DNA of 64,000 bases, from assembly GCA_020633435.1 (NCBI GenBank), contig JACKDP010000001.1, forward strand, positions 1,353,001 through 1,417,000, read 5' to 3'. The DNA comes from Myxococcales bacterium (GTDB taxonomy: Bacteria > Myxococcota_A > Bradymonadia > UBA7976 > UBA1532). Under the pieces are notes generated by a model. That model was given only the letters and a program-made list of their open reading frames with translations, was not told the DNA's origin and did not search any database. Made by a program: the position numbers and the translations under genes. Within the stretch, counting starts at the first letter, position 1; each line of letters starts with the position of its first letter. Below are positions 11,886-40,627 of the stretch, piece after piece.

Positions 11886-11906
11886 CCGCGCCCACGTGAC
11901 CGCTGG

Positions 11907-11984: not shown

Positions 11985-12018
11985 AAAAGCCCCAGACCTC
12001 CCGGTCTGGGGCTTTTTC
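11985..12018 (+). terminator. rho-independent terminator hairpin after tRNA-Asn
   Basis: agccccagacc-tccc-ggtctggggct followed by TTTTT. Confidence 0.75.
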
Positions 12019-12313: not shown

Positions 12314-13057
12314 TCAGCGTCTGCTCCCAGCCCGGTCCAGCGGGTGGCCTTCTTGCGAGCCGAGTTGATCGTCGCGAAGAAGGTGCCGCAGGTCGAAGCC
12401 GAAGTGGTCACGAAGCACCTCCGAAATCCGGGCACCATTGATTCCGTCGAGGCACTCGAAGCCAGCGTCGTCGTAGATCTCCAGCCGGTCTCCGCGGAGG
12501 AACAGGAAGCGGGTTCCCACGACCAGGGAGAAGCGGAGGGCGTCGCTGAACGGATACACGGCGCCCGAGCTGAATCGCGCCTCGATGTCGGCTCTGATCT
12601 CCGACTCCGGTCTGCCGCGCATGTCGATCTCGAGCTGCAGGCTTTCCCGTCCCCTCTTCTCATGGAACACAGACAGTCGTCCGTCCGCGATCTCGGTGCG
12701 AAAGCCCATCCCAAAGCAGCGAAATGCGATTTCCCTGTCGGCCGGGTACAGCCGGAGCGAAGGCCAGCCGTTGCCGACGTCGGCGAAGAACCGACGGGAC
12801 CCGATGCCCACTCGCGCCAGACGGTGGATCTCGCGCCCGCCAATGAAGCCCGAGTGGAGCGAGATGTCGAACCCGGCCCGCACGCCCGCGGCGACGAAGC
12901 TCAGTGTCTTGTCGGAGCACGTCCCGCCCGGGACGGCAGAGCCGAGCCGGGGCCCGTACAGGAGGTGCAGGTTGTGGAATGGCTCGGCCCGAAAGTGCTG
13001 CAGCATGAGCGCCTCCACGGCCTCCACCGAGGCGCGCGTCCGTCTGGCGCTGGTCAT
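12314..13057 (-). CDS. arylamine N-acetyltransferase (NAT) family protein
   Basis: NAT signature blocks: LQHFRAEPFHNLHLL (compare IRAVPFENL), VPGGTCSDKTLSFVAAGVRAGF (GG-C catalytic Cys block), HRLARVGIGSRRFFADVGNG (His block). The ATG overlaps the TGA of the upstream gene (ATGA coupling). Confidence 0.7.
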   Translation of the reverse strand: MTSARRTRASVEAVEALMLQHFRAEPFHNLHLLYGPRLGSAVPGGTCSDKTLSFVAAGVRAGFDISLHSGFIGGREIHRLARVGIGSRRFFADVGNGWPSLRLYPADREIAFRCFGMGFRTEIADGRLSVFHEKRGRESLQLEIDMRGRPESEIRADIEARFSSGAVYPFSDALRFSLVVGTRFLFLRGDRLEIYDDAGFECLDGINGARISEVLRDHFGFDLRHLLRDDQLGSQEGHPLDRAGSRR

Positions 13058-14490: not shown

Positions 14491-14500
14491 GCCGTGGCCC

Positions 14501-15565
14501 TCAGTTCGAGTCCTGCTCGTCGGTGGCCGTTCGGCGAAGGCCCGCGCGGACCCGCATCAGAAGGTGGCCGAGCCGGTTCTCACCGGATCCGTCGCCGCCG
14601 TCGCCCCAGTAGGCATCGTTGCGCGTGTGCTCCACCAGGAGCCGATCGCCGGACTCGAGCAGCCGCTCGGCCAGATCGGGATGCTGCCCGAACTTCGCCC
14701 GCAGCCCCTCCAGCATCACCGCCTCCTTCGCGCCCGGCCAGTCCTCGCGCCGGTGCTGCTCAGCGAGCGCGGTCGCACGAATCTTGGCCTGCATCGGGGT
14801 CTGGCAACGGCGGATGGTCTCCTCGTGCGGCGTGCCCACGAACTTCTGCGCCTGGTAGAAATGCTCGACGGTCGGCCATACGCGACGGCCGACGAAGATC
14901 GAGTGCCGAGAGAAGTTGGACAGTTCTCCCCAAGGCTGGTCGGAGTGGTAGAAGAAGATCGTGCCAGTGGAGCGGCAGTCTGCCTCGAGCGGCAGTTGGT
15001 GTCCCAGCTTCGCCTTCTTCGCCTTGAGGTACTCGGCGTTCTCTGGCCTGACCGTCGGGTGGGTATTGACCATCGTGACGTGCACACCGTGCTGCTGCAG
15101 ATAGCGCACCTTCCGGGGGTTGTTGGAGATCAGGCGAACGCTCGAGATGCGGAGGTGATGCAGCAGCCGCACCGCCGCGTCATAGCTTCGCGTGTCCTGG
15201 TCCAGGCCGAGGGCATCAAAGGCCTCCACGGTGTCAAGACCATCTTGCTGCATCTTGTGGATCGCCCTGATCTTCTGCGAGAGCCCTTGCCCGCGACCTT
15301 CCTGATGAAGGTGGACGATCAGGCCGCGGCCTTCCGCCGCGATCAGCTTCATCGCCTCGCGAAGCTGGTCTGCGCAGTCGCAGTCGACCGCGCCGAACAC
15401 TTCGGAGGCAAGGCAGGACGAGTGGACCCGGAGGAGCGGCTCGGCCCCCTGGTCTTCGAGTTGCCCAAGACAAACGACGCGGACGTGCTCGTCGCCAGCG
15501 TCATACATGCGGAACTCCCCCATCGGTGTGGGGAGAGCGCACCAGGTACCGGGTGCCATGTTCAT
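14501..15565 (-). CDS. GTP cyclohydrolase II (RibA) fused to a C-terminal NADAR/YbiA (COG3236, DUF1768) N-glycosidase-like domain
   Basis: RibA block VHSSCLASEVFGAVDCDCADQL...HQEGRGQGL. C-terminal FFYHSDQPWGELSNFS...VEHFYQAQKF...DAYWGDGGDGSGENRLGHLLMRVR is typical of the YbiA/NADAR family. The start ATG 15565 overlaps the upstream TGA (ATGA). Confidence 0.8.
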   Translation of the reverse strand: MNMAPGTWCALPTPMGEFRMYDAGDEHVRVVCLGQLEDQGAEPLLRVHSSCLASEVFGAVDCDCADQLREAMKLIAAEGRGLIVHLHQEGRGQGLSQKIRAIHKMQQDGLDTVEAFDALGLDQDTRSYDAAVRLLHHLRISSVRLISNNPRKVRYLQQHGVHVTMVNTHPTVRPENAEYLKAKKAKLGHQLPLEADCRSTGTIFFYHSDQPWGELSNFSRHSIFVGRRVWPTVEHFYQAQKFVGTPHEETIRRCQTPMQAKIRATALAEQHRREDWPGAKEAVMLEGLRAKFGQHPDLAERLLESGDRLLVEHTRNDAYWGDGGDGSGENRLGHLLMRVRAGLRRTATDEQDSN

Positions 15566-16473
15566 CGATTCACCTCGCAAAGGAACAGGCGAGCTTCACG
15601 CAGCAGGCGCTGGCTCATCAGCTTCAACTCTCTGCGTCGAGGGAACAGGACCCGGTCTGGATCGCCGCCCGGCGCGTCGAACGGGAACTCCCGCCGGACG
15701 GCCAGCGCGATGATCTGGGGGACCTTGAACCCATACCCCCAACAGGGGTCGTCGCGGCTCCAGCTCGCTGGCGACTCGTTCCATAGCCTCAGCCGCTCGA
15801 GGTCTCGCTGCACGGCCTCTGCGAAGGCCGTCTCCACCTCCGCAGTCCCGACCGACCGCCACCCCGCAAGCGCGACCTCGTCGAATTGTGCTGGCGCAGA
15901 TCCACCGTCTGCTCCCAGCCCCATCGCGATCAGCAACAGGGGTCGCCTCGATGACCAGCCCGCCCGGAAGCCGTCGACGACGACGCGGTCGAACTCGTCT
16001 TCGCCATGTGTGAGGACGTCGCCGCCGCCGTCTATGCCGATGGCAAAGTCGTAGTACGGAGTCCTCCCCGCCCGCCGCCCGGCGAGGGCAGCCAGCCCTC
16101 GCCCGTGGGCAGCGCACACGTACCGGAAGCCATGCTCCCATTCCAACGACGCCGAGATGCTCAACCCCTTGCCCCGTCGATGGTCGGGGTGGAGCTCAGC
16201 GGGGACGCTCGCGTGGTGCCGCAGGACGGCCTCGGGGTCGAGGTCCGGCTCGGGCCCGAGCGCATGCCGCCTGCCAGCCTCCCCAAGGAGGTCCTTCTGG
16301 GACAGGCCCCGGCAGTTCAGCGGCTGAGCGAGGTCCACATGGGAGCAGCCGTCGCTGATCAGGCGCTCCGCGATTGCCTTCGCGAGGATGAGGTCCGCTG
16401 AGCCGCCGGCGGCGAAGACGAGCCCTCGCCTATTGTCATGTCCGATCTGCTCAAGCACATGCCGGGTGATCAT
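15562..16473 (-). CDS. hypothetical protein (GGGGD-containing, function unknown)
   Basis: Non-degenerate composition; motifs GLVFAAGGSADLILAKAIAERL and AIGIDGGGDVLTHGED. Start and stop overlap the neighbouring genes, indicating translational coupling. Confidence 0.45.
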   Translation of the reverse strand: MITRHVLEQIGHDNRRGLVFAAGGSADLILAKAIAERLISDGCSHVDLAQPLNCRGLSQKDLLGEAGRRHALGPEPDLDPEAVLRHHASVPAELHPDHRRGKGLSISASLEWEHGFRYVCAAHGRGLAALAGRRAGRTPYYDFAIGIDGGGDVLTHGEDEFDRVVVDGFRAGWSSRRPLLLIAMGLGADGGSAPAQFDEVALAGWRSVGTAEVETAFAEAVQRDLERLRLWNESPASWSRDDPCWGYGFKVPQIIALAVRREFPFDAPGGDPDRVLFPRRRELKLMSQRLLREARLFLCEVNR

Positions 16474-19400
16474 GGACGTCCCTCTCCCAGCGCCAGTCCG
16501 CTGTCGACAAGCTGGCCGCGGATGAAGTCGATGTCGACGCTGGCCCGCGCGTAGTCATCGGCGACGGCCCGGAGCGATCCCAGGAATGCCCTGACCTCGC
16601 CGCGCTCGTGGCAAGCGATGCCGGATCGCAGGCGAGCGAAGCTCTCCGGCGTGAACCAATCGGCGAGGAAGCCGAGGAGCTCCGTCAGTTCGCCGGGCCG
16701 CGTCAGACACCGGAGCGCCTCTCGGAGTCCGGCGATGCGGTGAAAGCTCTGTTCGAGCATCTGCCATCGACGAGTCAGGTGACGGTCGGCCAGCCGGCCG
16801 ACCTCGTCCATTTCCTCGCGAGAGAAGTCGAGTCGGTGGTGAGGTCGCGGGCGAAGGAAGTCCGTCAACCCCGCGTAGAGCGTCGAGCCAATGATCTCTC
16901 CCTGCACTTTCTCGACATTGAGGCTGGGGGCCACGTTCACCCTGCCGACGTGGTGAATCGGAAATGCCACCGCCTCAATGCACAGACGACGATGGTGACG
17001 ATTCACGATCGCCCAGACCATGTCAGAGCGCCTCGCTTCACGGCCATGGATGGTCGTGATGGTGTTGGGCGTCTCGCTCAACGCGCGATGGTTCAGGACG
17101 AAGGTACAGCCCCCGCGGTTCACCGACTCCTTCGCGGAGGCCAGCGGATCGGGTTGGGGCGCCGCGATGATCGGGCGCGTGACCGGATCGCCGTTCAGGA
17201 GACCGACCGCACTGGTCAGCAGACGGGCGTAGGCCTCCCTCACGGTCTCGCCCGGAGCAGCAGGCTCCAGCCAATGCGGCATCTCGAGGTGCCCTGTGTG
17301 CTTCCGGGAGAGGTCGTAGTAGTAGTCTGGGAAACGCGCGCGGAGATGCGCGTTCTCGGCCGACCGGTCGGGCAAGACCAGCTCCTCCCGCAGACTCCGC
17401 AGCCAGTGGATGTTGTGGAGCAGATCCACGAGCTGGACCCTCAGCCCGTTAAGGGGCGGGTTGGGAGACGAACCTTCGTAGGCCCCGAGCAGCACGTCGG
17501 TGCCTTGCGACCGAAAAGCAGGCAGCCAGGGCAGGTAGGCGTGAGCGCGGGCATCGACCCGCATGTCATCGTCCAGGACCCACCCGAACGAGCCGGGGTC
17601 GCTGGCAAGCAACGCGCCGAGGTATCGCTGCAGCATCGTCCGAGCCATCGCGATGCCGACCTTCCCCTGGGGCCGACTCAGGATGGCAGCGCCAAACCCA
17701 CCGGCGGCTGCGTCGAGGCGCTGCCGGGCCTCGTCGGCCACCGCGATCGCCAGACCCGCGCTCCGTGCCCACCGGACCACGACGTCGAGCTCGTCAGGCG
17801 GGCTGCAGTTGTCCAGAACGAGGACGGCGAGCCCTTGGAGCGTGTCGCTCGCGCCCAGTGAGGCCAGCCCATCCAGCAGCGCCCGGAGCATGGGGGGGTC
17901 CGAGGTGATCACGCCCACATAGAGTCGAAATCGCCGGTGAGGCGGTGCCTCGCCAAAGGCACCCGCGGCCGCGAGACGGGGTCCAGGGCGTCTCGACGAC
18001 TCCCCCAGCTTCGCTCGAAAGGTGGAGTAGCCGGCCATCTCCGGAAGCTGATCCTCCGTGAGCGCTCTCTGCATCAACGCCTGGAGGCCTGGATGTGCTG
18101 CGTGTCGGCACGCCAGGAACGTCCTGCGTGCCATGTGCTCGAAGCCGAGCGGAGTCCAGGGCCGGACGTCCGAGCCATAGTCGATCAGCTTCACGCCCGC
18201 CCTTGTGACGACTAGGTTCTTTGGATGGACGTTGTTGCAGACCACGCCGACGTCGCGGCACCCGTTGAGGAGGCCGATCAGGTCGGACTCGTAACCCCCT
18301 TCGTAGGGGGTGCTCGCTTCATAGTCGTAGGTGAGGACGGCCCACGGACCGTCCTCAATGACCTCATTGAGGGCGTAGAGCCCCGGCGCGCCCACCCACC
18401 GGCCGACTTGCGCCTGCAGGAAGTCCAGTTGGGACCGAGGCATTCGAGTCTTCCAGTAGTCGATGCACTTGTAGACCGTCTTCCCATCGGTGAAGACGAC
18501 AGCCTCGGAGCCGCAACCCAGCAGCCGAAGCTGCCCGAGCGAGCAACGTCGTCGCACCCGATGCTCGGCGGTCGAGACGCGCTCGCGCAGAGTCCAGCGA
18601 TCAAGTGCGTGGACCGTGGCCTGTTCGACATGCGCTCCGGCGAGCTGGCGGCCGTCGACGCTCGCGGCGCCGAGCCAGCCAAGAACGTCCATCGCTCGAG
18701 CGCCGCGTGGCGTTCGCTCGTTGCGCTCGGAGCCCGCCGCCAGCCACACCTCCGTCCCGGTCCGGGAGCTCGCCACCCAGGCGGAACAGACGCGCAACAA
18801 CTTGAGGTGGCTCTCTGCCGTCGATGGCCCGGCGGGCAGATCAGGCAGCGCAAGCAGCGCTCTGCCCAGCTCGTCGTCCTCGTGGTCAGGCGACACTCGG
18901 AAGCAGCCGGCGCCTGAGTCGCGCAGCAGCGCGGTGGCCTCTTCGATGACCGCTCGCGCGCCGGTTCGGGGGCCCCGCTCGAGCAACACGATGTCGAGCC
19001 CCACGAGGTTGTCGTCCCGCAAATCCGCGATCATGTGCACCGCATCGAGCAGCTCGTCGGGGTGGTCGTTGTTGGCGAACAGGCCCAGCACCAAGGCCTT
19101 CCTGGGCGCCTCGTCAGGCGGCAAGACGACCGGCATGTCGCTCGGCGGACACCAGCCAAAGAGCATCTCGGCCCGGTCCTGGAACGCCTGCCGCTGATCC
19201 GCGGTCATGCGCCCGACGTACTTGCGCCAGAACGCCGTGAGCCCCTCGAGCTTTGCCACGGACCCACGCGTGCTGAGCCGGGCTCGGTCGGCGTCGGCGT
19301 AGTGGTCTACCAGGGCACCCGAGACGGGCCCGTAGCGAACCGTGCCGAGCTCCGCGATACGGATGCACAGGTCCCTGTCCGTCGTGCTGCGAAGACCCTC

Positions 19401-19958
19401 GTCGAACCCGCCAGCGGCAAGCAGCACGGACAGCCGCACGAAGAGGCTGGAGCCCTGGATCCCCGGGTTGCCCGTCAGGAAGTCCTCTGCCCGCAGCGTC
19501 TCGGGTGCTTCACCGACCAGCGGGGCGGTGGTGTCGCTCTCGATGCGGCGGAGGCCAGACGCGACCATGTCGAGGTGATTGTTCTCGGCGAGGTCCAGAC
19601 ATCGCTCGAGGTAGTGAGGCGCCCAGGAATCATCGTCGTCGAGGATGGCGACGAAGGTCGCCTCCGGTGCACCCGACTCTCCGAGTACCACGTCCAGGCC
19701 GGTGTTCCAGCTACCGCTGGCCCCCGCCGACCGGGCGTTCTCCACGTAGGCGATCCTGCATCCCGGCAGCGCCAGGTCATGAAGAAGGTCGCGCACGGCA
19801 TGGCGCTGGCCATCCGTCGAGTCGTCGACCACGACCAGGAAGTCGGGCGTGCGTGTCTGGGCGCGCACCGATTGAAGCGCGCGGTCACGCAGCAGCCCGA
19901 GACGATCGCAGGTTGCGATGACGACGGCGATACGCAGCCGAGACGGCGGTTCACTCAC
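16470..19958 (-). CDS. large multidomain protein: N-terminal GT2 glycosyltransferase + protein-kinase-like domain + C-terminal GT-A-like domain
   Basis: N-terminus RIAVVIATCDR...FLVVVDDSTDG...AILDDDD (GT2 DxD). Middle K in TVYKC, HPKNLVV (catalytic-loop analog) and IDYGSD (DFG analog). C-terminus FRLYVGVITSD...VLVLDNCSPPDE...GWVLDDDMRVD. The stop overlaps the start of the next gene. Confidence 0.7.
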   Translation of the reverse strand: MSEPPSRLRIAVVIATCDRLGLLRDRALQSVRAQTRTPDFLVVVDDSTDGQRHAVRDLLHDLALPGCRIAYVENARSAGASGSWNTGLDVVLGESGAPEATFVAILDDDDSWAPHYLERCLDLAENNHLDMVASGLRRIESDTTAPLVGEAPETLRAEDFLTGNPGIQGSSLFVRLSVLLAAGGFDEGLRSTTDRDLCIRIAELGTVRYGPVSGALVDHYADADRARLSTRGSVAKLEGLTAFWRKYVGRMTADQRQAFQDRAEMLFGWCPPSDMPVVLPPDEAPRKALVLGLFANNDHPDELLDAVHMIADLRDDNLVGLDIVLLERGPRTGARAVIEEATALLRDSGAGCFRVSPDHEDDELGRALLALPDLPAGPSTAESHLKLLRVCSAWVASSRTGTEVWLAAGSERNERTPRGARAMDVLGWLGAASVDGRQLAGAHVEQATVHALDRWTLRERVSTAEHRVRRRCSLGQLRLLGCGSEAVVFTDGKTVYKCIDYWKTRMPRSQLDFLQAQVGRWVGAPGLYALNEVIEDGPWAVLTYDYEASTPYEGGYESDLIGLLNGCRDVGVVCNNVHPKNLVVTRAGVKLIDYGSDVRPWTPLGFEHMARRTFLACRHAAHPGLQALMQRALTEDQLPEMAGYSTFRAKLGESSRRPGPRLAAAGAFGEAPPHRRFRLYVGVITSDPPMLRALLDGLASLGASDTLQGLAVLVLDNCSPPDELDVVVRWARSAGLAIAVADEARQRLDAAAGGFGAAILSRPQGKVGIAMARTMLQRYLGALLASDPGSFGWVLDDDMRVDARAHAYLPWLPAFRSQGTDVLLGAYEGSSPNPPLNGLRVQLVDLLHNIHWLRSLREELVLPDRSAENAHLRARFPDYYYDLSRKHTGHLEMPHWLEPAAPGETVREAYARLLTSAVGLLNGDPVTRPIIAAPQPDPLASAKESVNRGGCTFVLNHRALSETPNTITTIHGREARRSDMVWAIVNRHHRRLCIEAVAFPIHHVGRVNVAPSLNVEKVQGEIIGSTLYAGLTDFLRPRPHHRLDFSREEMDEVGRLADRHLTRRWQMLEQSFHRIAGLREALRCLTRPGELTELLGFLADWFTPESFARLRSGIACHERGEVRAFLGSLRAVADDYARASVDIDFIRGQLVDSGLALGEGRP

Positions 19959-20169
19959 GACAACCTTCCGGACAAGGCGGTTCAGCGCTCCCTCGTAGCC
20001 CGAAGAGGCGATGCACGGGCTCGACGCTACCAGACCGATTGGACACTGGAAAGTGGTGAGAGCAGGGAGTCGACCGTGCCCCGTGCACTCAGCAGGGCGG
20101 CCACGCGTGGCCGTCGAATTCGCCGTGGCTGTATGCGACGCTGGCCTTCCCCCCGCCCCCGGAGGTGCG
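19959..20169. promoter_or_regulatory. divergent intergenic region between the 5-gene minus-strand operon and the P450 gene (promoters expected)
   Basis: A 211-bp non-coding gap between divergently oriented starts. The P450 has the RBS ggaggtg 5 nt before its ATG. Confidence 0.3.
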
Positions 20170-28510: not shown

Positions 28511-28746
28511 GACGACGGACGTGGGGGCGGGCGGACACGGAGTGGTAACACCGTAGGGGCGGAGGACTCCGGGGCTGCGGCCGCGGCGACGCGGGCCGAA
28601 GCGCGGAGAACAACCCAACAAGATCAAGAGCTTGACTTCGGTAGCCTGGCCTCGCCGCGCCGCGACCGGCGCACATCCTGCTACCCCGGTTGCCCATCCG
28701 CGCGGCCCAGGCGTTCAATGGGCGTTACCCGCGGGGAGGTCTGCAG

Positions 28747-31700
28747 ATGCGTTGGTGGCTGGTGCTGGTGGGCGTCGTCTTGCTCTCGTGCGATGACGGC
28801 GGCGGGGGCGGCGGTGGGGACGCCGGTCGGCTGGATGGCGGCTCCCTCTGCGGCGACGGCCAGCGGAACGGCGCCGAGTCGGATGTGGACTGCGGGGGCG
28901 ACTGTACGCCGTGCGCCGCGGGGCAGGCGTGCCGCGTCGAGGGGGACTGCGGGGCGCTGAGCTGCGTGGACGGCGTCTGCGCGTCGGCGTCGTGCGACGA
29001 CGGGCGGCGCAACGGGGCCGAGACGTGGGTGGACTGCGGGGGCGGCTGCCCGACGTGCCCGGACGGACGGCCGTGCGGGGGGGGAGCCGACTGCACGAGC
29101 GGCGTCTGCGCGCAGGGGGTGTGCGCGTCGCCGGCCTGCGCGGACGGGGTGCAGAACGCCGGCGAGACCGGGACGGACTGCGGCGGGCCGTGCGCGGCGT
29201 GCGCGGACGGCGGGGGCTGCGTGGCGCCGGCGGACTGCGCGAGCGGCATCTGCCGTGGCGGCCAGTGCGCGGCGCCGGCCTGCGACGACGGCGCCCAGAA
29301 CGGCGACGAGACCGACATCGACTGCGGCGGCGGCTGCGGGCCGTGCCCGGAGGGCTTCCGGTGCGCGGCCGCGGGCGACTGCGCGACGGGGCCGTGCACG
29401 GCGGGCCGGTGCGTGTCGCCGCGGTGCGGCGACGGCGCGCAGAACGGCGACGAGACGGACGTGGACTGCGGGGGCCGTGCGCGGCGTGCGCCGACGGGCT
29501 GGCCTGCGGCGGCGACGCGGACTGCCAGGGGCAGCGCTGCGTGGGCGGCCAGTGCGCCGCGCCGACGTGTGACGACGGGCTGCGCAACGGGGCCGAGACG
29601 TGGCTGGACTGCGGCGGCGGCGCGTGCCCGCCCTGCGGGGTGGGCGGCGTGTGCGTGGCCCACACCGACTGCGCGGACGGGGTGTGCTTCGAGGGGCGGT
29701 GCGCCGAGGCGGCCTGCGGCGACGCGACGCGCAACGGCGAGGAGACGGACGTGGACTGCGGCGGGCCCGACTGCGGGCCGTGCGCGGACGCGGCGGCCTG
29801 CGTGGCGCCCGCGGACTGCCGGAGCCTGGTGTGCACCGGCGGGGCCTGCGCGGCGCCGGCCTGCGACGACGGGCGGCGCAACGGGGGCGAGACGGACGTG
29901 GACTGCGGCGGGCCCGACTGTCCGGCGTGCGTGGGCGGCGGCGGCTGCAACGCGCCGGCGGACTGCGGGGGCCTGCCCTGCGTGGCGGGGCGGTGCGCCG
30001 CGCCGGGCTGCGCCGACGGGGTGCAGAACGGGGATGAGACGGACGTGGACTGCGGCGGCGCCTGTGGGCCGTGCCGACCGGGGCTGGCCTGCGTGGCCGA
30101 TCCCGACTGCCAGAGCCGGCTCTGCGTAGACGGCCTGTGCACGGCGGCGACGTGCCGCGATCTGGCCCGCAATGGCGACGAGACGGACGTGGACTGCGGC
30201 GGCCCGTGCTCGCCCTGCCCGGCCGGGCGGGTGTGCGTGGCGCACCGCGACTGCGAGGGCGACGTCTGCGACGGCGGCCGGTGCCAGCTCCCGACCTGCG
30301 AGGACGACCGGCGCAACGCCAGCGAGACCGACATCGACTGCGGCGGCGGCGCCTGCGAGGCCTGCGGGCGGGGGGCCGTCTGCCAGATCGGGAGCGACTG
30401 CGAGAGCGGCGTCTGCCGCGGCGGCGTCTGCCAGGCGGCGACGTGCTTCGACGGCGTCGCCAACGGCGGCGAGAGCGGCGTGGACTGCGGCGGGCCCTGC
30501 GGTCCGTGCCGGTTCGACGAGCAGTGCCGGTCGGACGCCGACTGCGCCGACCGCGTCTGCGCCGGCGTCTGCCTGGCCGCGACCTGCGAGGACGGGCGGC
30601 AGAACGGGCTGGAGACGTGGATCGACTGCGGCGGCGCCGACTGCGCCCCCTGCCCCTCCGGGCGGCCTTGCCGCGATCCCGGGGACTGCGAGGACGGCGT
30701 CTGCCACCTGACACCGGGGCGGGCCAGCGGCGGGCTGTGCGCCGAGGCGAGCTGCGCCGACGGCATCTTCAACGAGGGCGAGAGCGCGGTGGACTGCGGC
30801 GGCGTCTGCCCGCCGTGCGCGCCGGGCATGGGGTGCCTGCGGGGCGAGGACTGCGCGAGCCGGGTCTGCGTCGAGGGCCAGTGCGCGGCGCCCTCGTGCG
30901 CCGATGGGCGGGCCAACGGCTTCGAGACGTGGGTCGACTGCGGCGGGCCGTGCGCGCCGTGCCCCGACGGGCGGCCCTGCGGCATCGACGCCGAGTGCGA
31001 CAGCGGGAGCTGCATCGCGGGCCTCTGCGCCGTGGCGAGCTGCCGGGATCGGCGGATCAACGGCCTGGAGACGGGGATCGACTGCGGGGGCCGGTGCCCG
31101 GCGTGCGGCGAGGCCGAGGTCTGCGCCCTCGACGACGACTGCCTGAGCGAGGCCTGCGTGGACGGGCGCTGCGCGGCGCCGGCCTGCGACGACGGCCGGC
31201 GCAACGGGGCGGAGACCGGGCTCGACTGCGGCGGCGGCTGCCCGCCGTGTGGGGCGGGCGTGCGCTGCGCCGGGGCCGCCGACTGCCTGTCCGGGGTGTG
31301 CGGCGCGGGCGGGCGCTGCGCCGCGGCGGCCTGCGCCGACGGCGTGCAGAACGACGCGGAGTCAGGCGTGGACTGCGGCGGCGACTGCGCCCCCGTGCGT
31401 GGACGGCGGGGCCTGCAACCGGGCGGCGGACTGCCAGAGCGGCGTGTGCGCGGCGGGCGCGTGCGCCGCGCCGGCCTGGCGACGACGGGGTGCGCAACGG
31501 CGACGAGGCCGCGGTGGACTGCGGGGGCACCTGCCCGCCCTGCGGCGACGGCGCGCGCTGCGCCGCGGGGCCCGAGTGCCTGAGCGGGGTGTGCGCGGCC
31601 GGGCGCTGCGCCCCCGCGAGCTGCGCCGATGGGCGCCAGAACGGGGCGGAGCAGGCCGTCGACTGCGGCGGAGGCTGCGGTGGCTGCCCGGTGGGGCGGC

Positions 31701-34700
31701 CCTGCCGGGGCCCGGCGGACTGCACGAGCGCGGTCTGCCTGGACGGGCTCTGCGCCCCGCCCGCCTGCGACGATCGGGTGAGCAACGGCGCCGAGACGGG
31801 CCTGGACTGCGGCGGCGCCTGCCCGGCGTGCGGCGAGGGCGCCGTGTGCAGCCTGGCGGCCGACTGCCTGAGCGGCGTCTGTGCCGGGGGCCGCTGCGCC
31901 GCGCCGGCCTGCGGTGACGGGGTGGCCAACGGCGCCGAGACGGGGCTGGACTGCGGCGGCGGCTGCGGGCCCTGCGCCGACGGCGCGGCCTGTCGCGGGG
32001 CGGCCGACTGCGCGAGCGGGCAGTGCGTGCGGGGCTTCTGCGCGGCGCCGGCCTGCGCCGACGGCGTGCGCAACGGGGGCGAGACGGCCGTCGACTGCGG
32101 CGGGCTCGTGTGTCCGGCCTGCCCCGACGCCGGGGTCTGCGCCGTGGCCACCGACTGCCAGAGCGGCGTGTGCAGCGCGGGTCGCTGCGCGGCGCCCCGG
32201 TGCGACGACGGCGTGCTGAACGGCGACGAGAGCGCCCTGGACTGCGGCGGCGTGTGCCCGCCCTGCGCGGACGCGGCGGACTGCCGCCAGCCGGCCGACT
32301 GCGCGAGCGGCGTCTGCGCGGGCGGCGTCTGCGCCGCGCGCCGGCCTGCGCCGACGGCGTGCGCAACGGGGGCGAGGCGGGCGTCGACTGCGGGGCCCCT
32401 GCCCCGCCTGCCCGGCAGGCTCGACCTGCGGCAGGGCGGCCGACTGCCTGGACGGCGTCTGCGCGGCCGGGCGGTGCGCCCCGGCCGGGTGTGGCGATGG
32501 CGTGCAGAACGGCGGCGAGACCGCGGTGGACTGCGGCGGCCCCTGTGGTCCCTGCGCCGACGCCGCCGCCTGTGGCCTCGGGCGCGACTGCGCGAGCGGG
32601 GTGTGCGCCGGGGGGCGGTGCGCGGCGGCCGCCTGCGCCGACGGCGTGCAGAACGGCCCCGAGACGGCGACGGACTGCGGCGGTGGCTGCCCCGCCTGCG
32701 CCGATGGCGCGACGTGCGGCGCGGCGGCCGACTGCCGCAGCGGCGTCTGCGCCGGCGGCCGGTGTGCGCCGGCGCGGTGCGACGACGGGGTGCAGAACGG
32801 CGCCGAGACGGCCATCGACTGCGGGAGCCGGTGCCCCGCCTGCCCCGACGGCACCGCGTGTGGCGTCGGCGGCGACTGCGCGAGCGGGGTGTGCGCCGCG
32901 GGCCAGTGCGCGGCGCCGGCCTGCGCCGATGGCGTGCACAACGGCCCCGAGACGGCCGTGGACTGCGGCGGCGGCTGCCCCGCCTGCGCGGTGGGGCTGG
33001 CTTGCGGCGCGGGCGGCGACTGCCTGAGCGGCGTCTGCCAGGGCGGCCGGTGCGCGGCCCCCACCTGCGCCGACGGCGTGCAGAACGGCGACGAGGCCGC
33101 GGCGGACTGCGGCGGCCCTTGCGCCCCGTGCGCCGACGGCACGACCTGCGCCCGGGCCCTCGACTGCGCCAGCGGCGTGTGTGATCCGGTCGCGTTCGTC
33201 TGCGCCGCGCCCACCTGCGGCGACGGCGTGCGCAACGGCGCCGAGACGGCGGTGGACTGCGGCGGCCCCTGCCCCGCCTGCCCGGCCGGCGAGCTCTGCG
33301 GCCGGGCGGCGGACTGCCAGAGCGGCGTCTGCCTGAGCGGCCGGTGCGCGGCGCCCGCGTGCGGGGATGGCGTGCAGAACGGCGCCGAGACGGACACCGA
33401 CTGCGGCGGGCTCTGCCGGGCGTGCGGGGATGGCCTGCAGTGCGGCCGCGGCGGCGACTGCCAGAGCGCGGTCTGCACGGCGGGCCGCTGCGTCGCGCCG
33501 ACGTGCGCGGACGGGGCCGCCAACGGCCTGGAGACGGACGTGGACTGCGGCGGCTCGTGCCCGCCCTGCGGCGCCGCGCGGCGCTGCGGCCAGCCCGGGG
33601 ACTGCCAGGCCGGCGTCTGCCAGCGCGGCTTCTGCGCCCTGCCGGCGTGCGACGACCGCGTCCAGAACGGCGCGGAGTCGGACGTGGACTGCGGCGCCGC
33701 GTGCGCCCCTTGCCTCGCCGGCCGCGCCTGCGCGGGCCCGGCCGACTGCCAGAGCGGCGCCTGCGGCGGCGGCGTGTGCACCGTCCCGGCCTGCAACGAC
33801 GGGGTGCTCAATGGCGACGAGACGGACGTGGACTGCGGCGGCGCCTGCGCCGGCTGCGCCCAGGGCGCCCCGTGCCGGATCGACGTCGACTGCGCCCAGG
33901 GCCTCTGCTTCAACGGCCGCTGCGGGGACCACCCCTGCCGCAACGGCGTGCGCGATCTGGCCGAGACCGACGTGGACTGCGGCGGGAGCTGCGCCGCGTG
34001 CGGCGCGGGCAAGGCGTGCCTCTTCAACGGCGACTGCGCCAACAACGACTGCCGCGCGGGGGTCTGCTTCGTCATCCCGCCGCGCATCGATCTCGTCGAG
34101 CCGGCCGTCGTGCCCGTGACCGGCGGCGTCGACGTCGCCCTCACCAGCACCCCGGGCACCTACGGCGCCGCCGACGTCTACGTCGACGGCGTGCTCGTCC
34201 CCACCCGCCGGTTCGGCGACACCCGGCTCCAGTTCACCGCCCCGCCGCGCCGGCAGGGCCCCGGCCCCGTCGCCCTCGAGGTCCGCAACCCCGACGGCGG
34301 CGCCGTCACGGTGCCCGACGCCCTGACCTACGGCCCCGGCGCCATCCACGTCGCCGTCCAGAACGCCCTCGGCCCCTGCGACGCGTTCACCTGCACCGCC
34401 ACGGGGCTGGACGCCTTCAACCCCGCGATTCCATTGAGCTTCCGCTGGACGGTCAACGGCCTGGCGGCCGCCGGGGACGCCCAGCTCGCGGACGCCGTCC
34501 AGGCGGGCGACGAGGTGATCTGCCACGCCCTCGTCGGCGACCCCGGGGCCACCTGGGAGGTCCCGTCGGCCCCCTTCGTGGTCACGGGGGCCGTCGGCCT
34601 CGTGAGCGGCTACGACCTGCAGCCCCGGGCCCCCGCCCTCGGCGAGGCCCTCCGGTGCAGCGGCCAGGCCCTCCCCACGTCCTGCGGCGACCCGACCGAG

Positions 34701-37700
34701 CTGCAGTACACCTGGCGCGTCAACGGCGCGGTCGATCCGGCGGCCGTGGGCCCCGTGTTCCCCACGACGGGCCTGCGCGAGGGCACCACGGTGGCGTGCG
34801 AGCTGGCCGCCGTCTCCGCCGCCGGCGACGTCGGGCCGGTGCTGACCGCCGACCCCGTCACGCTCACCCCCGGCCGCTACGCCATCCAGAGCGCCTTCGT
34901 CGGCGACGCGTTCGGCGTCGCCCTCGGCGTCGTCGGCGACCTGGACGGTGACGGCCTCGCCGACATCGTGGTGGGCGCCCCCAACGACTCCTCGACGGCC
35001 CCCCAGGCCGAGCGTGGGCGCGTCTACCTCCTCCCCGGCCAGGCCACCCTGCAGACGCAGGACGCCCAGGCGAGCGCCCGCTGGATCCTCGACGGGGAGC
35101 AGGGCGGCCGCCGTGTGCCCGCCATCGATCACTCGACGCCCACCTACTTCGAGGCGGCGGATGGCTACATCTACCGGCCCTTCGGCGATGGCTTCGGCTT
35201 CGCCATCGGGCGGGGTCGCCACCTCGTCGACGACGACGAGATCCCGGACGTCGTGGTCGGCGCGCCCTACGCCCTCGGCGCCCTCGGCACCTACGGCAAC
35301 GGCCGCGCCTACGTCCTCTCCGGCGCCCGGGTCCCCGGCCTCCCCGCCCTCGCGGACGCCCCCCGCCTGGGCAGCGGCACCCTGCTGCTGGGCCGCACCC
35401 CGACCCGCATCCAGAACCGGTTCCTCGCCAGCATCGAGTTCCCGCCGTTCAACGGCGACTTGATGGGCTTCGGCGCCCGCTTCGCCGGCGACTTCAACGG
35501 CGACGGCTACGACGACGGCCTGGTGGCCGCCCCCAACGAGGGGAACCGCGACGAAGGCGCCATGTACGTGGTGCCCGGCGGCTCGCTGGGCCGCCGCGTC
35601 GACCTCTCCCTCGCCGGCGCCGAGGCCCAGGCCGGCCTCGTCCGCGTCACCGGCGCCGAGGCGGTGCCGGGCTTCAACCACTTTGGCCGCATCATGGACA
35701 CCGTCGGCGACTTCGATGGCGACGGCTTCGACGACTTCTACGTCCACCCCGGCGCCCTGCTGGGCGGCAACTCCACCTACCTGGTTCACGGCCGCGAGGA
35801 CACCCGCCCCATCGATCTGCGCCAGGAGACCCGGCTGCACACCGGCGGCGGCATCGGCTTCTCCTGCTGCCCGTACCGCGTCGACTACGGGCGCCTCGTC
35901 TACCAGACGCGGGCGGCCGTCGGCGGCGACATCAACGGCGATGGCCTCGACGACTACGCCCTGCGCTCCGTGGTGCCGGCCGGCGGCGAGATGCTGATCA
36001 TCTTCGGCCGCCGCGACCGCGCCATCCCCACGACGGCCCAGCTCCTGGCGGGCCAGGGCGGCTACGCCATCCGTGGCACCCCGACGGCCATCGAGGGGGA
36101 CGCCGCCATCGCCGACATGAACGGCGACGGCTACGACGACATCGTCGCGGTCTACAGCGCCGCGGACTTCATCGAGTTCCCCCGGGCGGGCCGCCTGATC
36201 GTCGTGTACGGCGGGCCGAACGCGCCCCCGGCCACCTTCCCCGAGATGCTGCAGCGGCGGGCGGGCTACCAGGAGCCGGGCCCCGTGGCGGGCGGGTACT
36301 TCGGCGCGTCCGTGGACGTCGGCGACGTGAACGGCGACGGCCTGGCCGACGCCGTCGTGGGCACCCCCGGGGCCAGCCGCGTGATGGTCATCCTCGGCCG
36401 CGACACCGAGGGCCGCATCACCCACCGCGCCGGCGACGCCAACGACACCCTCACCGGCACCCCCGGGGCCGACGTCATGGTGGCGGGCCGGGGCGACGAC
36501 GTCCTCCTCGGCGGCGGCGGCACCGACGCGCTGAGCGGCGGGGCCGGCAACGACGTGCTGGCCGTGGGCGACGCCACCTTCCGCCGCGTGGACGGCGGCG
36601 CGGGCGTGGACACCCTCCGCAGCGCCGGCGGCCTCGCCCTCGATCTCACCGCCCTGCGCGCCCGCGTCCGCGGCATCGAGATCGTCGACCTCACCGCGGC
36701 CGGCGCCGACGTCCTGCGCGTCGACGGCGCCGCCATCCGCCGCAACCACGGCCGGCTCATGACCGTGCTGGGCGCGGCCGACGACCTCGTCGAGGTGGTG
36801 GGCGGTGGCTGGGACGCCGGGGTGCCCGTGCAGGTGGACGGCGTCGCCTTCACCGAGCTGCGCCACGGCCCCCTCACCCTGCGCGTCCTGGCCGGGGTGC
36901 CCGTGCACATCGGCCCCAACATCATCACGCGCGGCCTCAACGCCGTGGAGCTCACGCCCCCGGGCGATCCCGTCGCCCCCATCCAGGCCACGGATCCCGA
37001 CGGCGCCATCGTCCGCTGGACCCTCGACGACCCCTCCGGCACCCTCACCATCGACGCCCAGGGCGTCGTCCGGGTGGCCGCGGGCGGCGTCATCAACTTC
37101 GAGCAGCAGCCCCAGATCCCCATCCGCGTGACCGCCGAGGACGACACCGGCCTGCGCACGTCCCGCGACCTCGTCGTGGACGTCACCAACGTCGACGAGC
37201 CCCCGGTCTTCGCGGCCGGCGCCCCCGTGGCCTTCACGCTCGAGGAGGGCATCGCCACCGGCCGCTTCCTGCACCGCTACCTGGCCACCGATCCCGAGGG
37301 GCTGGACGTCCACTTCGAGCTGGTCGATCCCAGCGGCGCCTTCGCCCTCGGCGCCGACGGCGCCCTCCGCGTGGCCGACGGGACGGCCCTCGACTTCGAG
37401 CGGGCCCCCACCGTCGACCTGACGCTGCGCGCCCTGGACCCCGGCGGAAACTTCAGCGAACTCGCGGTGCGCGTCACCGTCACCGACCAGCCGGAGATGG
37501 TCTGGACGGGCACCTTCACCTTCTCGTCGCGGGGTCAGGGCCTCTTCGGGGGCGTCGGCAACGACACCTTCCCGATGCCCGTGCAGAGCATCGTCATGGT
37601 CGGCGACGGCCAGGACAAGGTGGCGGACCTCGGCGTCCTGAAGATCGGCGGCGCCCTCGGCGGCAGCGTCGGCGTGACCTTCGACGGCACCTACACCTCC

Positions 37701-38735
37701 GGGCACCTCATCATCGACTGGCCGGTCGAGGTCCAGGTGGTCGTCGCCGACAACCTGGTCCCCGGCCAGCCGACGACCCTCGCCGCCCAGTTCCGACCGG
37801 CCCCCGGCGCGCGGATGCTGGCGGTCATGCCCTACTACTCCATCTACGTCCGCATGTTCCTGCAGCAGTTCCTGACCCGGTTCCTGGCGTGCCTGCCGTC
37901 GGGCATCTTCCCCCCCGGCAGCGCCATCGCCAACCTGCCCGTCCCCGGCGTCAACCCGTTCGGCCTGCCCGCGCGGAGCTGCCGGGCCGTCCAGGTGGGC
38001 CCGCGCAACGACCAGCTCTTCCAGCGGCTCTTCGCCTCCCTGCCCGAGCCGGCCCGGACCGGCACCCTCAGCGCCGACGGCCGCCGCCTGAGCGGGGGCC
38101 CCTGGACGCAGACCTACCTCAACGAGAGCATCCCCTGGGATGACTACCTGTCCTACGTCCTCCAGCGGACGGGCCTGCCGATCCCCATCATCTTCAACAT
38201 CCCCACGGCCGGCCCGCGCGCGGGCTTCAACGGCCCGGCGGTGCCCTCGTCGACCGTCGTCGGCAACCGCGCCTCCTTCGCCGTCGGCCCCGCCACCCTC
38301 AACGCGGCCTTCTGGGGGCTCGACCTCATCGGCGGCATCGGCCAGCGCTTCACCGTCGACGCCGACCTGCGCAACCTCAACGGGCACCTCGTCCTGGAGG
38401 ATGGCACCGCCATCGACTTCGCCCTCGGCACCGAGGTGGATCTCGTCCTCCCCCCCGGCGCCGACCGCAACGGCGACGGCCGCGTGGACGCCGAGCTGAC
38501 CGTCTCCATGGACGCGCAGGTCACCAACAACCGCGAGTGGCTCGTCACCATGGGCGCCCGCTGGATCGCCGCCTACGCCGTGCTGCAGCCCCTCCAGGCC
38601 GGCGCCCCGCCCGTCGAGGCGGGCCCCCTCGTCGACCTGCAGGGCTTCCTGGAGCAGCCGTTCCAGGCGCCGCTCAGCTTCCCGCTGCGCACGCAGCCCA
38701 TGCGCCTCAAGATCCCGCTGCAGCTCCAGCCCTGA
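28747..38735 (+). CDS. giant (~3,300-aa) secreted adhesin-like lipoprotein: ~55 x six-Cys 38-aa repeats + IPT/TIG + FG-GAP repeats + RTX-type Ca-binding repeats + cadherin-like domains; frame interrupted by 5 small indels (pseudogene or assembly errors)
   Basis: Start MRWWLVLVGVVLLSC (lipobox), RBS ggggagg. Repeat C-x-DG-x-x-NG-x-E-x-x-x-DCGG-x-C-x-x-C-x-x-G-x-x-C-x4-DC-x-SG-x-C-x-x-G-x-C. Later VGDLDGDGLADIVVGAP (FG-GAP), [35 protein letters not shown] (RTX-like), VTAEDDTGLRTSRDLVVDVTNVDEPP (cadherin-like). The ORF track shows the gene split into four frames: 28690.., 28911.., 30071.. and 32502... Confidence 0.7.
28800..34070. repeat. ~114-bp tandem coding repeats (six-Cys units, ~55 copies)
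   Basis: ...DCGG.C..C... recurs every ~38 aa across >5 kb. Confidence 0.85.
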
Positions 38736-38796
38736 CGCGCGCGCTGCCGACAATCCCGAGGATTATCGAAGACTTCCACCGCCACCGCGGCTGAGA

Positions 38797-39273
38797 TCAG
38801 CGCGACGGGCCGGCCAGCTCGATGCGCACGCGCGTCGCGTCGCGCAGGGCCTCGACGCCGCCGTCGAGCCGGCCGAGCCGGACCAGCCCGCTGGCGCTCG
38901 GGAAGTCCCGGTAGAAGATCGCCAGGTTGCCCCACGGGGCGTACCAGGTCAGGTCGCCGGCCGACGCGGCGTAGCGGTCCGGCGCGCCCTCGGTGTCGAG
39001 CCGCCTCGGCAGGTCCGCGATCTTCTCGGTCCGGGCATGGTCGGCCAGCCGCAGGTCGAGGGGGAGCAGGCGCGCGAAGTCGCGGCCCGCTGCGGTGTCG
39101 TCGAGGGTCGCGGTCAGCGTCTGGCCATCGACGATGAGGACGATGCGGGTCATGGCGGGCACCTCCAAAGGGTTCGTCGGCGACGGGGGCGCCGCCCAGG
39201 CAGCGCAGGGGCCGAGCAGCAACACGGCGACGAGCAGACCCCGCCGCCACCAGGTCGTGGCCATCACGCTCAC
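38797..39273 (-). CDS. secreted cyclophilin-like-fold protein (hypothetical)
   Basis: Signal peptide WRRGLLVAVLLLGPCAAWA. RIVLIVDGQTLTATLDDTAAGRDFARLLPL...WGNLAIFYRDF resembles the cyclophilin-like DUF family. Confidence 0.5.
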   Translation of the reverse strand: MSVMATTWWRRGLLVAVLLLGPCAAWAAPPSPTNPLEVPAMTRIVLIVDGQTLTATLDDTAAGRDFARLLPLDLRLADHARTEKIADLPRRLDTEGAPDRYAASAGDLTWYAPWGNLAIFYRDFPSASGLVRLGRLDGGVEALRDATRVRIELAGPSR

Positions 39274-39289
39274 CTCCAGCCGGTCGGCT

Positions 39290-40447
39290 TCAGAACGTCG
39301 ACGCGTCGATCACGTAGCGGTACCGGGCCTCCTTCTGCTGCACCTTGACCCAGGCGTCGCTCACCTCGGCGGCCGAGATCACCTGGACCTGGGGCCGGAT
39401 GCGGTTGTCGGCGCAGAAGTGGACGACCTCCTGGGTCTCGCGCATCCCGCCGATCAGCGAGGCCTCGAGCTTCACCCGCGAGACCGACAGGGCGAGCAGG
39501 TTGAGGTCCACCGAGAAGCGATCGGGCATGCCCACCTGGGTGAACGTGCCCCGCGGCTTGACGAGCGCCGCGTAGGCGCCGACGTCGTACTTGAACGGGA
39601 TGGTGGAGATCATCCAGTCGAGCTGGCCGCGGTGGGCGGCGAGGCTGGCCGGGCCCTCCACGACCACGGGCTCGGCGCCCCACCCCCGGATGTCCGCCGC
39701 CTTGCTCGGGGAGGTGGTGAAGGCGAAGACCCGGGCGCCCTTCGCGACGGCCAGCTTCACGGCCAGGTGGCCCAGCCCGCCGATGCCCGCGACGCCCACC
39801 TTGTCGCCCACCTCGAAGCCCGCCTGCATGATGGGCGAGTACGTCGTGATGCCCGCGCAGAGCAGCGGCGCCGCCTCGGCCAGGGGGATGTGGGCCGGGA
39901 TGTGGACGGCGAAGTGGTCGCGGACGACGATCTGCGTCGAGTAGCCGCCCTGGGTGATGCCGGTGGGCTCGCGGGCATCGGGGTAGCCGTAGGTGAAGAG
40001 CGTCTGGCCCTTCTCGCAGTAATGCTCCTCGCCGTGGGTGCAGCGCTCGCAGGTCAGGCAGCTGCCGACCATGCAGCCCACGCCGGCGCGATCGCCCACC
40101 TTGAACTGCGTCACCTTGCGCCCGACCGCGCTGACGATGCCCACGATCTCGTGGCCGGGGACCTGCGGGTACCTCTGCGGCCCCCAGTCGCCCTTCTCCT
40201 GGTGGATGTCGGAGTGGCAGATGCTGGCGTACTGGATGTCGATGACGATGTCCTCGTCGCCCATCGGCCGCCGCTCGAACTCGAAGGGCTGCAAGCGGCC
40301 CGAGGGGTCGACGGCCGCGAGGCCGCGGACGAGGCGGGCCCGCGGGCGGGCGAGGGCCCCGGCCGGGGTGGCGAGCAGCACCGCGGCGCCCAGCGCGGCG
40401 GAGCCTTCGATGAAGCGTCGGCGGGTGAGCGGCTCTCTCGGGTCCAT
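39290..40447 (-). CDS. Zn-dependent alcohol dehydrogenase (cinnamyl-alcohol-DH-like, NADP) with a Tat signal peptide
   Basis: Twin-arginine motif TRRRFIEGSAALGAAVLLATPAGALA. CHSDIHQ and GHEIVGIVSAVG (catalytic Zn), and CxxCxxC in CLTCERCTHGEEHYC (structural Zn). GGLGHLAVKLA (NAD(P) binding). Confidence 0.8.
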   Translation of the reverse strand: MDPREPLTRRRFIEGSAALGAAVLLATPAGALARPRARLVRGLAAVDPSGRLQPFEFERRPMGDEDIVIDIQYASICHSDIHQEKGDWGPQRYPQVPGHEIVGIVSAVGRKVTQFKVGDRAGVGCMVGSCLTCERCTHGEEHYCEKGQTLFTYGYPDAREPTGITQGGYSTQIVVRDHFAVHIPAHIPLAEAAPLLCAGITTYSPIMQAGFEVGDKVGVAGIGGLGHLAVKLAVAKGARVFAFTTSPSKAADIRGWGAEPVVVEGPASLAAHRGQLDWMISTIPFKYDVGAYAALVKPRGTFTQVGMPDRFSVDLNLLALSVSRVKLEASLIGGMRETQEVVHFCADNRIRPQVQVISAAEVSDAWVKVQQKEARYRYVIDASTF

Positions 40448-40627
40448 GGCGGCCTCCTTCCTGGCGCCCCGCGGTGCGGGGCCGCGTCCTGGTTGCAGGC
40501 TAGGGGCCCGGCCCCCGGGGCTCTATGGGAGGTCCTGCCGAAGATCTGCCTGATCCTGCCGACCGCGGCAGGACCCGACGCGGGGCACCCCCAGAAGGCT
40601 TGCGTTCCCGGAACGCGATGAGGCGAA

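Follow-up and report, generated by a model that had tools for sequence, protein, structure and literature searches.

The stretch of DNA analysed here (the window) comprises 64,000 nucleotides (nt) of the forward strand of contig JACKDP010000001.1, positions 1,353,001 to 1,417,000, from a metagenome-assembled genome (MAG) deposited as 'Myxococcales bacterium' (GCA_020633435.1), and its most conspicuous feature is a giant modular gene at 28747-38735 on the plus strand. The window is rich in GC (about 75%, rising to 78-81% at 28-34 kb). The coding region extends from an ATG at 28747 to a stop codon at 38733-38735, but no single plus-strand open reading frame (ORF) spans it: the coding signal passes through four reading-frame segments, and an intact frame is obtained only by stitching, in which five minimal edits yield 3,328 codons uninterrupted by a stop. 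An earlier note on this DNA, prepared from the letters alone, had proposed a single region of about 3,300 codons once the frames are stitched; the region and its extent are real, although it is not one ORF and its interruptions amount to five defined breaks rather than an unspecified few. Two long antisense ORFs on the minus strand (28715-34159 and 31362-38753) were rejected, since third-position GC favours the plus strand, and are a by-product of the GC content of about 80%. Our best explanation of the locus, which we hold as a whole with moderate confidence, is that it encodes one giant secreted lipoprotein of 3,328 amino acids (aa) once the five small indels are mended.

The start of the gene is marked by a Shine-Dalgarno sequence and a predicted lipoprotein signal peptide (Table 1). 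The signal MRWWLVLVGVVLLSC matches the lipobox pattern [LVI][ASTVI][GAS]C (PS51257-type), as would be expected of a bacterial lipoprotein processed by signal peptidase II (SPase II), which bears out the signal (LLSC) read in the earlier note. Lipoboxes are likewise present in the orthologues P0001 (LLLSAC) and P0002 (LLWAC). The signal is followed by a short glycine-rich linker, a long array of cysteine-rich repeats and a series of distal modules, to which we refer as the head.

Table 1. Features of the giant gene and their positions in the window.
Feature	Position	Strand	Basis or remark
Ribosome-binding site region (GGGGAGG)	28731..28746	+	GGAGG Shine-Dalgarno, 7-nt spacer to ATG 28747; read from the sequence
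Lipoprotein signal peptide MRWWLVLVGVVLLSC	28747..28791	+	Lipobox LLSC, Cys15 the predicted lipidated residue; PS51257-type pattern
Gly-rich linker DDGGGGGGGDAGRLDGGSL	28792..28848	+	Translation
Array of 36 tandem units of ~48 aa, 8 Cys each	28849..34079	+	TRF, unit table, Cys counts, alignment, AlphaFold2 (AF2)
Frame break 1	29475..29477 (~29476)	+	One C missing after a G5CC run (GGGGGCC, then G); expected GGC CCG TGC
Frame break 2a	31391..31395 (31393)	+	Extra C: C5 run where C4 is expected
Frame break 2b	31477..31480 (31479)	+	Extra G: TGGC instead of TGC
Frame break 3a	32335..32341 (32339)	+	Extra GC dinucleotide in a GCGCGC stretch; sister assembly L084 is without these 2 nt
Frame break 3b	32389..32393 (32393)	+	G run of 4 where 5 are expected; sister assembly L084 has the additional G
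ORF as in GenBank (MCB9545282.1, 'FG-GAP repeat protein', 2,077 aa)	32502..38735	+	Exact look-up; truncated call
Tract of 2.39 kb shared with the P0001 gene	33962..36350	+	99.6% identity, sharp borders
IPT/TIG-like Ig-fold domain	34080..34322	+	Pfam TIG below threshold; PF01833 on record for orthologues
Two ~90-aa beta domains with conserved Cys pairs (C..FTC.A.GL ... RW.VNG)	34323..34895	+	Conserved alignment columns
Seven FG-GAP repeats, predicted integrin-alpha-like beta-propeller with DxNGDGxxD calcium loops	34896..36383	+	Pfam, PDB
RTX (GGxGxD) nonapeptide repeats	36450..36620	+	Pfam HemolysinCabind, CyaA
Two cadherin-like repeats	36930..37490	+	Pfam Cadherin, cadherin-23
C-terminal 414-aa all-beta domain with GADxNGDGRVD loop, ends PLQLQP	37491..38732	+	AF2; no family match

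An array of eight-cysteine repeats

The tandem nature of the repeats is confirmed by TRF, which finds a period of 144 nt over 28978-33850 with 66-72% nucleotide matches. Cut at its conserved motif, the stitched protein yields 36 units of 47-56 aa, 27 of which measure exactly 48 aa, and every one of the 36 contains exactly eight cysteines. The array thus occupies aa 35-1777, or about 1,743 aa, and replaces the earlier estimate of some 55 units of 38 aa with six invariant cysteines over about 2,100 aa. The unit consensus is CxDGVxNGxETxVDCGGxCxPCxxGxxCxxxxDCxSGVCxxGxCAAPx. Nor are the units near-identical, as had been supposed: any two share on average 54.5% of their residues (range 38-77%), and units far apart are no less alike than neighbours, which indicates that the array is old and diverged.

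The repeat corresponds to no family model that we could find. A 371-aa stretch of the array retrieved no Pfam or NCBIfam family at E<=1, the 36 single units compared with Pfam gave a best E of 0.13, and the hidden Markov models (HMMs) of TIGR02232/DUF4215 and of the TraA repeat TIGR04201 do not match the array. The kinship with the myxobacterial TIGR02232-type repeat that had been suggested earlier therefore lapses, as there are no Pfam or NCBIfam matches at E<=1-10. TIGR02232/DUF4215 (IPR011936) is comparable in being a cysteine-rich tandem repeat enriched in myxobacteria and present in some eukaryotes, but differs from the unit described here in length (48 aa here), cysteine count (eight here) and motif (CxDGxxNGxETDVDCGG... 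here).

An AF2 model of three units, built on a 51-row alignment, reached a pLDDT of 89.7. Foldseek comparison of this model with the PDB returned nothing significant, the best matches being knottins over 22-25 residues at E ~2, and a profile search of PDB sequences with the repeat gave only matches at E>=0.2, in which the second half of the unit was paired with knottin toxins and Dickkopf. This half-unit (C..G..C....DC.SG.C..G.C) superposes locally on knottin (inhibitor-cystine-knot) peptides with a root-mean-square deviation of 0.5-1.1 Å over 22-25 residues; however, the matches to knottins and Dickkopf/colipase are not significant (E about 0.2-2), concern half a unit only, and do not argue for homology or a shared function.

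Despite the lack of a model, the repeat is widespread. At least 3,694 proteins were retrieved at E<=1e-3 by a search with aa 1-1300, and identity did not exceed 58% in any of the matches listed. The repeat-bearing proteins listed belong mostly to Myxococcota, Polyangia and Bradymonadia, including the cultured Microvenator marinus, and others occur in a Xanthomonadales MAG, a Woesearchaeota MAG, bdelloid rotifers (Adineta) and the green alga Chromochloris. These proteins frequently contain 15-31 units in tandem, at periods of 48-52 aa and often behind lipoprotein signals; arrays of 20-31 eight-cysteine units are common among them. The arrays are joined to fibrinogen-like, CBM3, PA14, TSP-C, Kelch, SBBP, DUF1566, PKD, RCC1 or C-type lectin domains, and the attachment to many different ligand-binding ends among these (fibrinogen-like, CBM3, PA14, TSP-C, Kelch, PKD and C-type lectin) fits a generic spacer. 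In the source databases the names of the proteins derive from these other domains, as one would expect if no model of the repeat itself exists, and no description of the eight-cysteine repeat was found in the literature. The possibility that the repeats belong to a well-characterised family with a known function has accordingly not materialised; what was found is a widespread repeat with neither a model nor a study.

Among the eukaryotic proteins, two from Adineta (P0149, P0154) and one from Chromochloris zofingiensis (P0186) carry arrays of 21-31 eight-cysteine units. The presence of the repeat in bdelloid rotifers and a green alga could reflect horizontal transfer from bacteria, or contamination.

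Modules of the head

The array is followed by a domain that we best call IPT-like. Its match to Pfam TIG (PF01833) scores 13.6 bits (E 0.069), below the cutoff of 20.9, though it covers model positions 1-81 of 84, and PF01833 matches are on record for the orthologues P0002 and P0003. The IPT/TIG-like fold of the earlier note is thus favoured by the extent of the match and by the orthologues, but not by its score. For the two small beta domains that come next, Pfam gave no match. The FG-GAP repeats are well supported (PF01839: 97.7 bits, cutoff 22.1, E 2.9e-28, seven stretches), with matches to integrin alpha-V in the PDB, and so is the RTX block (PF00353 HemolysinCabind: 52.1 bits, cutoff 23), which matches CyaA in the PDB at E 2e-17. 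The cadherin call is marginal but consistent: as a 366-aa sub-fragment the sequence attains 31.0 bits in two stretches of Cadherin (PF00028; cutoff 28.8), in a 1,604-aa context only 25.5 bits, and a search of PDB sequences matches cadherin-23 at E 1e-5. A PDB profile search with a further alignment (A4) gave matches only in the cadherin columns that full-length relatives had brought in. About seven FG-GAP repeats, hemolysin-type GGxGxD repeats and two cadherin-like repeats had all been read correctly from the letters, and the overall picture of a giant adhesin-like lipoprotein, with a cysteine-rich array and then IPT-like, FG-GAP, RTX and cadherin modules, holds.

Missing from that picture was the C-terminal domain of 414 aa. 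Neither Pfam nor the sequences of the PDB contain a match to it, and a search of 1.84 billion representatives yielded only 19 relatives (E<=1e-3). The AF2 model from an 18-row alignment (pLDDT 84, pTM 0.73) is all-beta, with strands of 19-37 residues. Foldseek found no credible match in the PDB; pore-state MACPF, CDC and gasdermin structures came with TM-scores of 0.05-0.14 and E>=7e-3. The domain likewise lacks the marks of an autotransporter or outer-membrane barrel anchor: there is no terminal aromatic beta-signal and no Pfam match, TM-scores to BamA, TamA and porins are below 0.1, and the relatives end in PLQ[LF]xP or [SA][IF]DLxx.

The long strands raise the question whether the protein is primarily an adhesin at all. 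It could instead be a contact-dependent effector, in which the long-hairpin C-terminal beta domain inserts into a target membrane after delivery by stalk and head. The all-beta model and the nature of its weak top Foldseek matches are in line with such a role, as is the strong divergence of the distal half between paralogues (55-80% nucleotide identity) beside a tract that is 99.6% identical; moreover, the host lineage and Bradymonadia include predators. Against this, the Foldseek matches are not credible, neither a toxin or immunity gene nearby nor a Pfam toxin match was found, and the conserved GADxNGDGRVD loop speaks for a domain that binds calcium and is structural or lectin-like, so that we regard an effector as quite improbable.

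Relatives of the protein and a near-identical tract

The same architecture is intact as a single ORF in three relatives that differ in their number of repeat units. P0001, from a Myxococcales MAG (1,652 aa), has a lipobox, one cysteine unit and the same head; P0002, from a Bradymonadia MAG (2,067 aa), has a lipobox and about 10 units; and P0003 (2,632 aa), encoded on the same contig as P0002, has about 23. The modular order, which the earlier note had considered unusual, is therefore common to two Bradymonadia proteins and one Myxococcales paralogue with different stalk lengths. The head also occurs without any stalk, in the lipoproteins P0010 and P0013 and in P0014, P0020 and P0034. The occurrence of one head with anything from no to many units indicates that the head is the conserved part and the stalk an add-on of variable length. 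When genome contigs were searched with a profile of the head, generic FG-GAP patterns dominated the output and no close relative emerged.

On a contig of a Bradymonadia MAG (L001, GCA_046290225.1, 3949-26204), the two Bradymonadia homologues lie ~6 kb apart, in a cluster that also encodes further large proteins of surface type, one with Big_5 and RCC1 repeats (1,593 aa) and one with TSP3_bac and Laminin_G_3 (905 aa), and an AraC regulator.

One part of the gene is shared with the P0001 gene almost without change. Between the window and contig L002 (GCA_020430725.1, JAGQJI010000662, 1114-3502) this tract extends over 2,389 nt with 9 mismatches and no indels; it comprises the last cysteine unit, the IPT-like domain and the FG-GAP propeller, while on both sides identity drops to 55-80%. 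A contig from the Logan collection (L083) ends 30 nt inside the tract, as expected of a graph branch at k=31, which implies that both versions of the gene coexist in the sample. Such a pattern points to conversion between paralogous genes or to a recombinant variant of the strain.

Five breaks of the reading frame

The five breaks, located by comparing the three frames side by side, all fall within 29.4-32.4 kb, and three or four of them lie in G/C homopolymers or a GC dinucleotide run. An explanation by programmed frameshifting or phase variation was rejected, because the five sites would need shifts of -1, +1, +1, +2 and -1 in runs of only 4-5 nt. The source contig measures 1,738,311 nt (~1.74 Mb), a length that in a MAG suggests long reads. 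Independent short-read contigs match the window without indels, namely L083 (36321-39931), L085 (26623-29304), L086 (26623-29291) and, over the tract described above, L002; the Logan contigs L085 and L086 were found via the upstream radical-SAM gene and end ~170 nt before break 1. Together the four cover ~8.7 kb of the window with zero indels.

A sister assembly, GCA_041390005.1 (L084), begins inside the array at window position 31640, and the first two places at which its length departs from that of the window are breaks 3a and 3b, each with precisely the predicted correction, so that both testable sites are in frame there. L084 has 66 further indel events in its copy of the gene, and the protein called from it (P0267) is scrambled where it is read out of frame; the gene is evidently difficult for long-read assemblies. 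Pattern scans of JGI metagenomes for in-frame or out-of-frame versions of sites 2a and 1 gave no match. Purifying selection acts in the stitched frame: in the repeat region, the window and L084 differ by 88 synonymous and 34 nonsynonymous substitutions, 90 of these 122 at codon position 3. All 288 repeat cysteine codons are intact, and the stitched frame is free of in-frame stops.

The breaks are probably residual indel errors of long-read metagenome assembly and not biology, given that five independent indels occur with no other decay, mostly in homopolymer or dinucleotide contexts, and all in a segment without short reads. Alternatively, the five frameshifts are real and the gene is a recently inactivated pseudogene in this strain, from which ~243 correct residues would be exported as an N-terminal lipoprotein stub. 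The indel-free agreement with short-read contigs wherever a comparison can be made speaks for an assembly that is generally accurate, no other gene of the window looks broken, and the paralogue with one stalk unit in the same sample could take over the function. Nevertheless, a decaying gene would hardly have acquired five independent indels and kept all its repeat cysteines, an uninterrupted stitched frame and a strong synonymous excess over the sister strain; moreover, the breaks are confined to the sole segment without short-read cover, mostly in contexts typical of long-read errors, and the sister genome is in frame at both sites that can be compared. We therefore consider inactivation, which would have to be very recent, unlikely though not remote.

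The deposited annotation implies a different solution. Under MCB9545282.1, the 2,077-aa ORF at the end of the region would be an independent FG-GAP protein, and the upstream repeats would belong to other genes or be non-coding; eight candidate ORF fragments upstream had no exact match in the protein collection. Apart from the GenBank record itself, the evidence runs counter to this view, which we take to be highly improbable: the ORF starts with a GTG in the middle of a repeat (inside unit 26) and has no signal peptide, yet encodes more than 80 disulfide-type cysteines; the repeat register, third-position GC and unit pattern continue upstream to the Shine-Dalgarno sequence, the ATG and the lipobox; and the orthologues are single ORFs.

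Comparison with known systems

Cysteine-rich tandem repeats have been proposed to act as a rigid stalk presenting the recognition domain of TraA, a myxobacterial surface receptor (PMC3325183). TraA of Myxococcus xanthus (PA14 head, TIGR04201 repeats, MYXO-CTERM anchor) resembles the giant lipoprotein in combining a cysteine-rich stalk with a recognition head and in having polymorphic or mosaic recognition parts. It differs in its repeat family (the one found here has no NCBIfam or Pfam match), in its polarity, which is reversed here with an N-terminal lipobox anchor and a C-terminal head, in its head (PA14 instead of FG-GAP propeller, RTX and cadherin) and in the number of units, a handful in TraA as opposed to 36.

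Giant RTX adhesins of the LapA, MpIBP, SiiE and FrhA types consist of a cell-proximal anchor, a tandem-repeat extender and distal calcium-dependent binding modules that include RTX. These substrates of the type I secretion system (T1SS) share the overall logic and size class of the giant lipoprotein. By contrast, the latter has a Sec lipoprotein signal and no C-terminal T1SS signal, its extender is built of disulfide-rich 48-aa units rather than Ig-like BIg domains, and its RTX block is short and internal, with ~700 aa following it; no T1SS genes were found among its neighbours.

A third group, the bacterial FG-GAP/VCBS/cadherin 'integrin-like' proteins, of which hundreds were matched, has a similar succession of a seven-bladed FG-GAP propeller, RTX and cadherin modules, but the full head with the 414-aa C-terminal domain is found in a handful, and a stalk of cysteine repeats in front of it in only four. 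From these comparisons, the giant lipoprotein would work like TraA and the T1SS RTX adhesins, but it belongs to neither family. Its kind, giant modular surface adhesins, is known; new are two domain families without models, the eight-cysteine repeat and the C-terminal domain.

Proposed function

With the same moderate confidence, we propose that the gene encodes an N-terminally lipid-anchored, giant adhesin-like protein in which a disulfide-locked stalk of 36 units presents a calcium-dependent head of integrin and cadherin type. The Shine-Dalgarno sequence, ATG and lipobox, the 36 intact units, the modules of the head and the relatives all support a single lipoprotein adhesin; surface exposure, the role of the stalk, calcium binding by the units and adhesion are what we infer from them. 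According to this model, the Sec/SPase-II signal with its LLSC lipobox would lead to lipidation of Cys15 and tether the N-terminus to the cell envelope. Beyond the glycine-rich linker, the modules of 48 aa, each with eight cysteines that presumably form four disulfides and with a conserved D/N/E/D acidic cluster, would make up a long, protease-resistant, semi-rigid stalk, probably on the order of 100 nm, that holds the calcium-dependent binding head away from the cell. The head, consisting in order of the IPT-like domain, two small beta domains, the seven-bladed FG-GAP propeller, the RTX beta-roll, two cadherin repeats and the new 414-aa beta domain, would bind a ligand on other cells, prey or matrix, and the length of the stalk (1, about 10, about 23 or 36 units) may set its reach.

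Several points weigh against this proposal. An aspartate at position +2 after the lipidated cysteine, as present here, is an inner-membrane retention signal in E. coli, though the rules differ in myxobacteria. For every member of the family, surface exposure and adhesion are predictions from sequence. The stretch at 29.3-33.9 kb, which holds all five breaks, is covered by no reads or short-read contig, and as no gene elsewhere in the window is obviously broken, assembly errors would have to be confined to the giant gene. In GenBank, the protein annotation covers just the final 2,077 aa, and the nearby genes hold no secretion system, export gene or obvious partner.

A protein of this composition could also have a structural role and bind calcium in the extracellular matrix or envelope, for instance as a fibril or S-layer-like tether, without recognising a specific ligand. 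Such a role would suit its great length, the wide occurrence of the repeat in secreted Myxococcota proteins and the many sites at which calcium may bind, in FG-GAP loops, RTX, cadherin linkers and the acidic cluster of each unit. FG-GAP propellers, cadherin repeats and IPT domains are, however, typical recognition modules, and relatives that vary the stalk and keep the head suggest that the head is the functional end; a purely structural part is thus clearly less plausible than an adhesin.

A further-reaching scenario, which as a whole we offer as speculation that probably does not hold in all its parts, would make the stalk unit an undescribed, structurally distinct domain family of thousands of secreted Myxococcota/Bradymonadota proteins, transferred to bdelloid rotifers and a green alga, with copy numbers from 1 to 36 before a single type of head serving as a molecular ruler for its reach from the cell; the rare C-terminal domain with its long hairpins would have a new fold and engage the target surface or insert into it, and gene conversion would reshuffle the head between paralogues, as the near-identical tract of 2.39 kb suggests.

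Neighbouring genes and other features of the window

The proteins of the window are recorded as MCB9545273-287 with locus tags H6706_052xx ('Myxococcales bacterium' MAG). Neighbours of the giant gene encode a P450, an SDR, a TetR regulator, a B12-radical SAM protein, a cyclophilin-like protein, a TAT-signal alcohol dehydrogenase (TAT-ADH), a LysR regulator, a DJ-1 protein, an F420 reductase and an FKBP. In the sister MAG GCA_041390005.1, the end of the giant gene almost directly adjoins the LysR gene (L084 7044-7071); the cyclophilin-like and TAT-ADH genes (window 38737-40621) are absent there, which amounts to an indel polymorphism of ~1.9 kb.

Some distance upstream, an island of lower GC content (0.66-0.68, compared with 0.72-0.78 around it) at ~12000-20000 encodes on the minus strand a 1,162-aa family-2 glycosyltransferase, a GTP cyclohydrolase II-NADAR fusion, an asparagine synthase and two ORFs without Pfam match, and may have been acquired horizontally. 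Positions 9727-11913 show strong GC and AT skew (both about -0.2); the 729-aa plus-strand ORF at this place has only sub-threshold matches to decapeptide or pentapeptide repeats, and several long ORFs overlap, so that the true gene is ambiguous. A secreted protein of 391-445 aa without Pfam match (MCB9545276.1; 23869-25206, plus strand) occurs at >=90% identity in several independent assemblies. Finally, in a 1,359-aa ORF at 57174-61250 (plus strand), a class I/II aminotransferase domain is joined to a GNAT-like domain (Acetyltransf_6) at the C-terminus, the N-terminal ~580 aa of the ORF being without assignment.

Implications

The public record offers a truncated 'FG-GAP repeat protein' of 2,077 aa in place of a gene for 3,328 aa, probably because long-read assembly indels split the gene, and this is a practical warning. 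With the present gene, a rare new C-terminal domain is documented, along with a widespread cysteine-rich repeat whose fold is predicted with confidence and for which neither Pfam nor NCBIfam has a model, although it is found in at least 3,600 proteins. For the biology of predatory and social bacteria, the natural series of stalks (1, about 10, about 23 and 36 units) that carry a single conserved head of integrin and cadherin type makes the idea of the stalk as a spacer testable.

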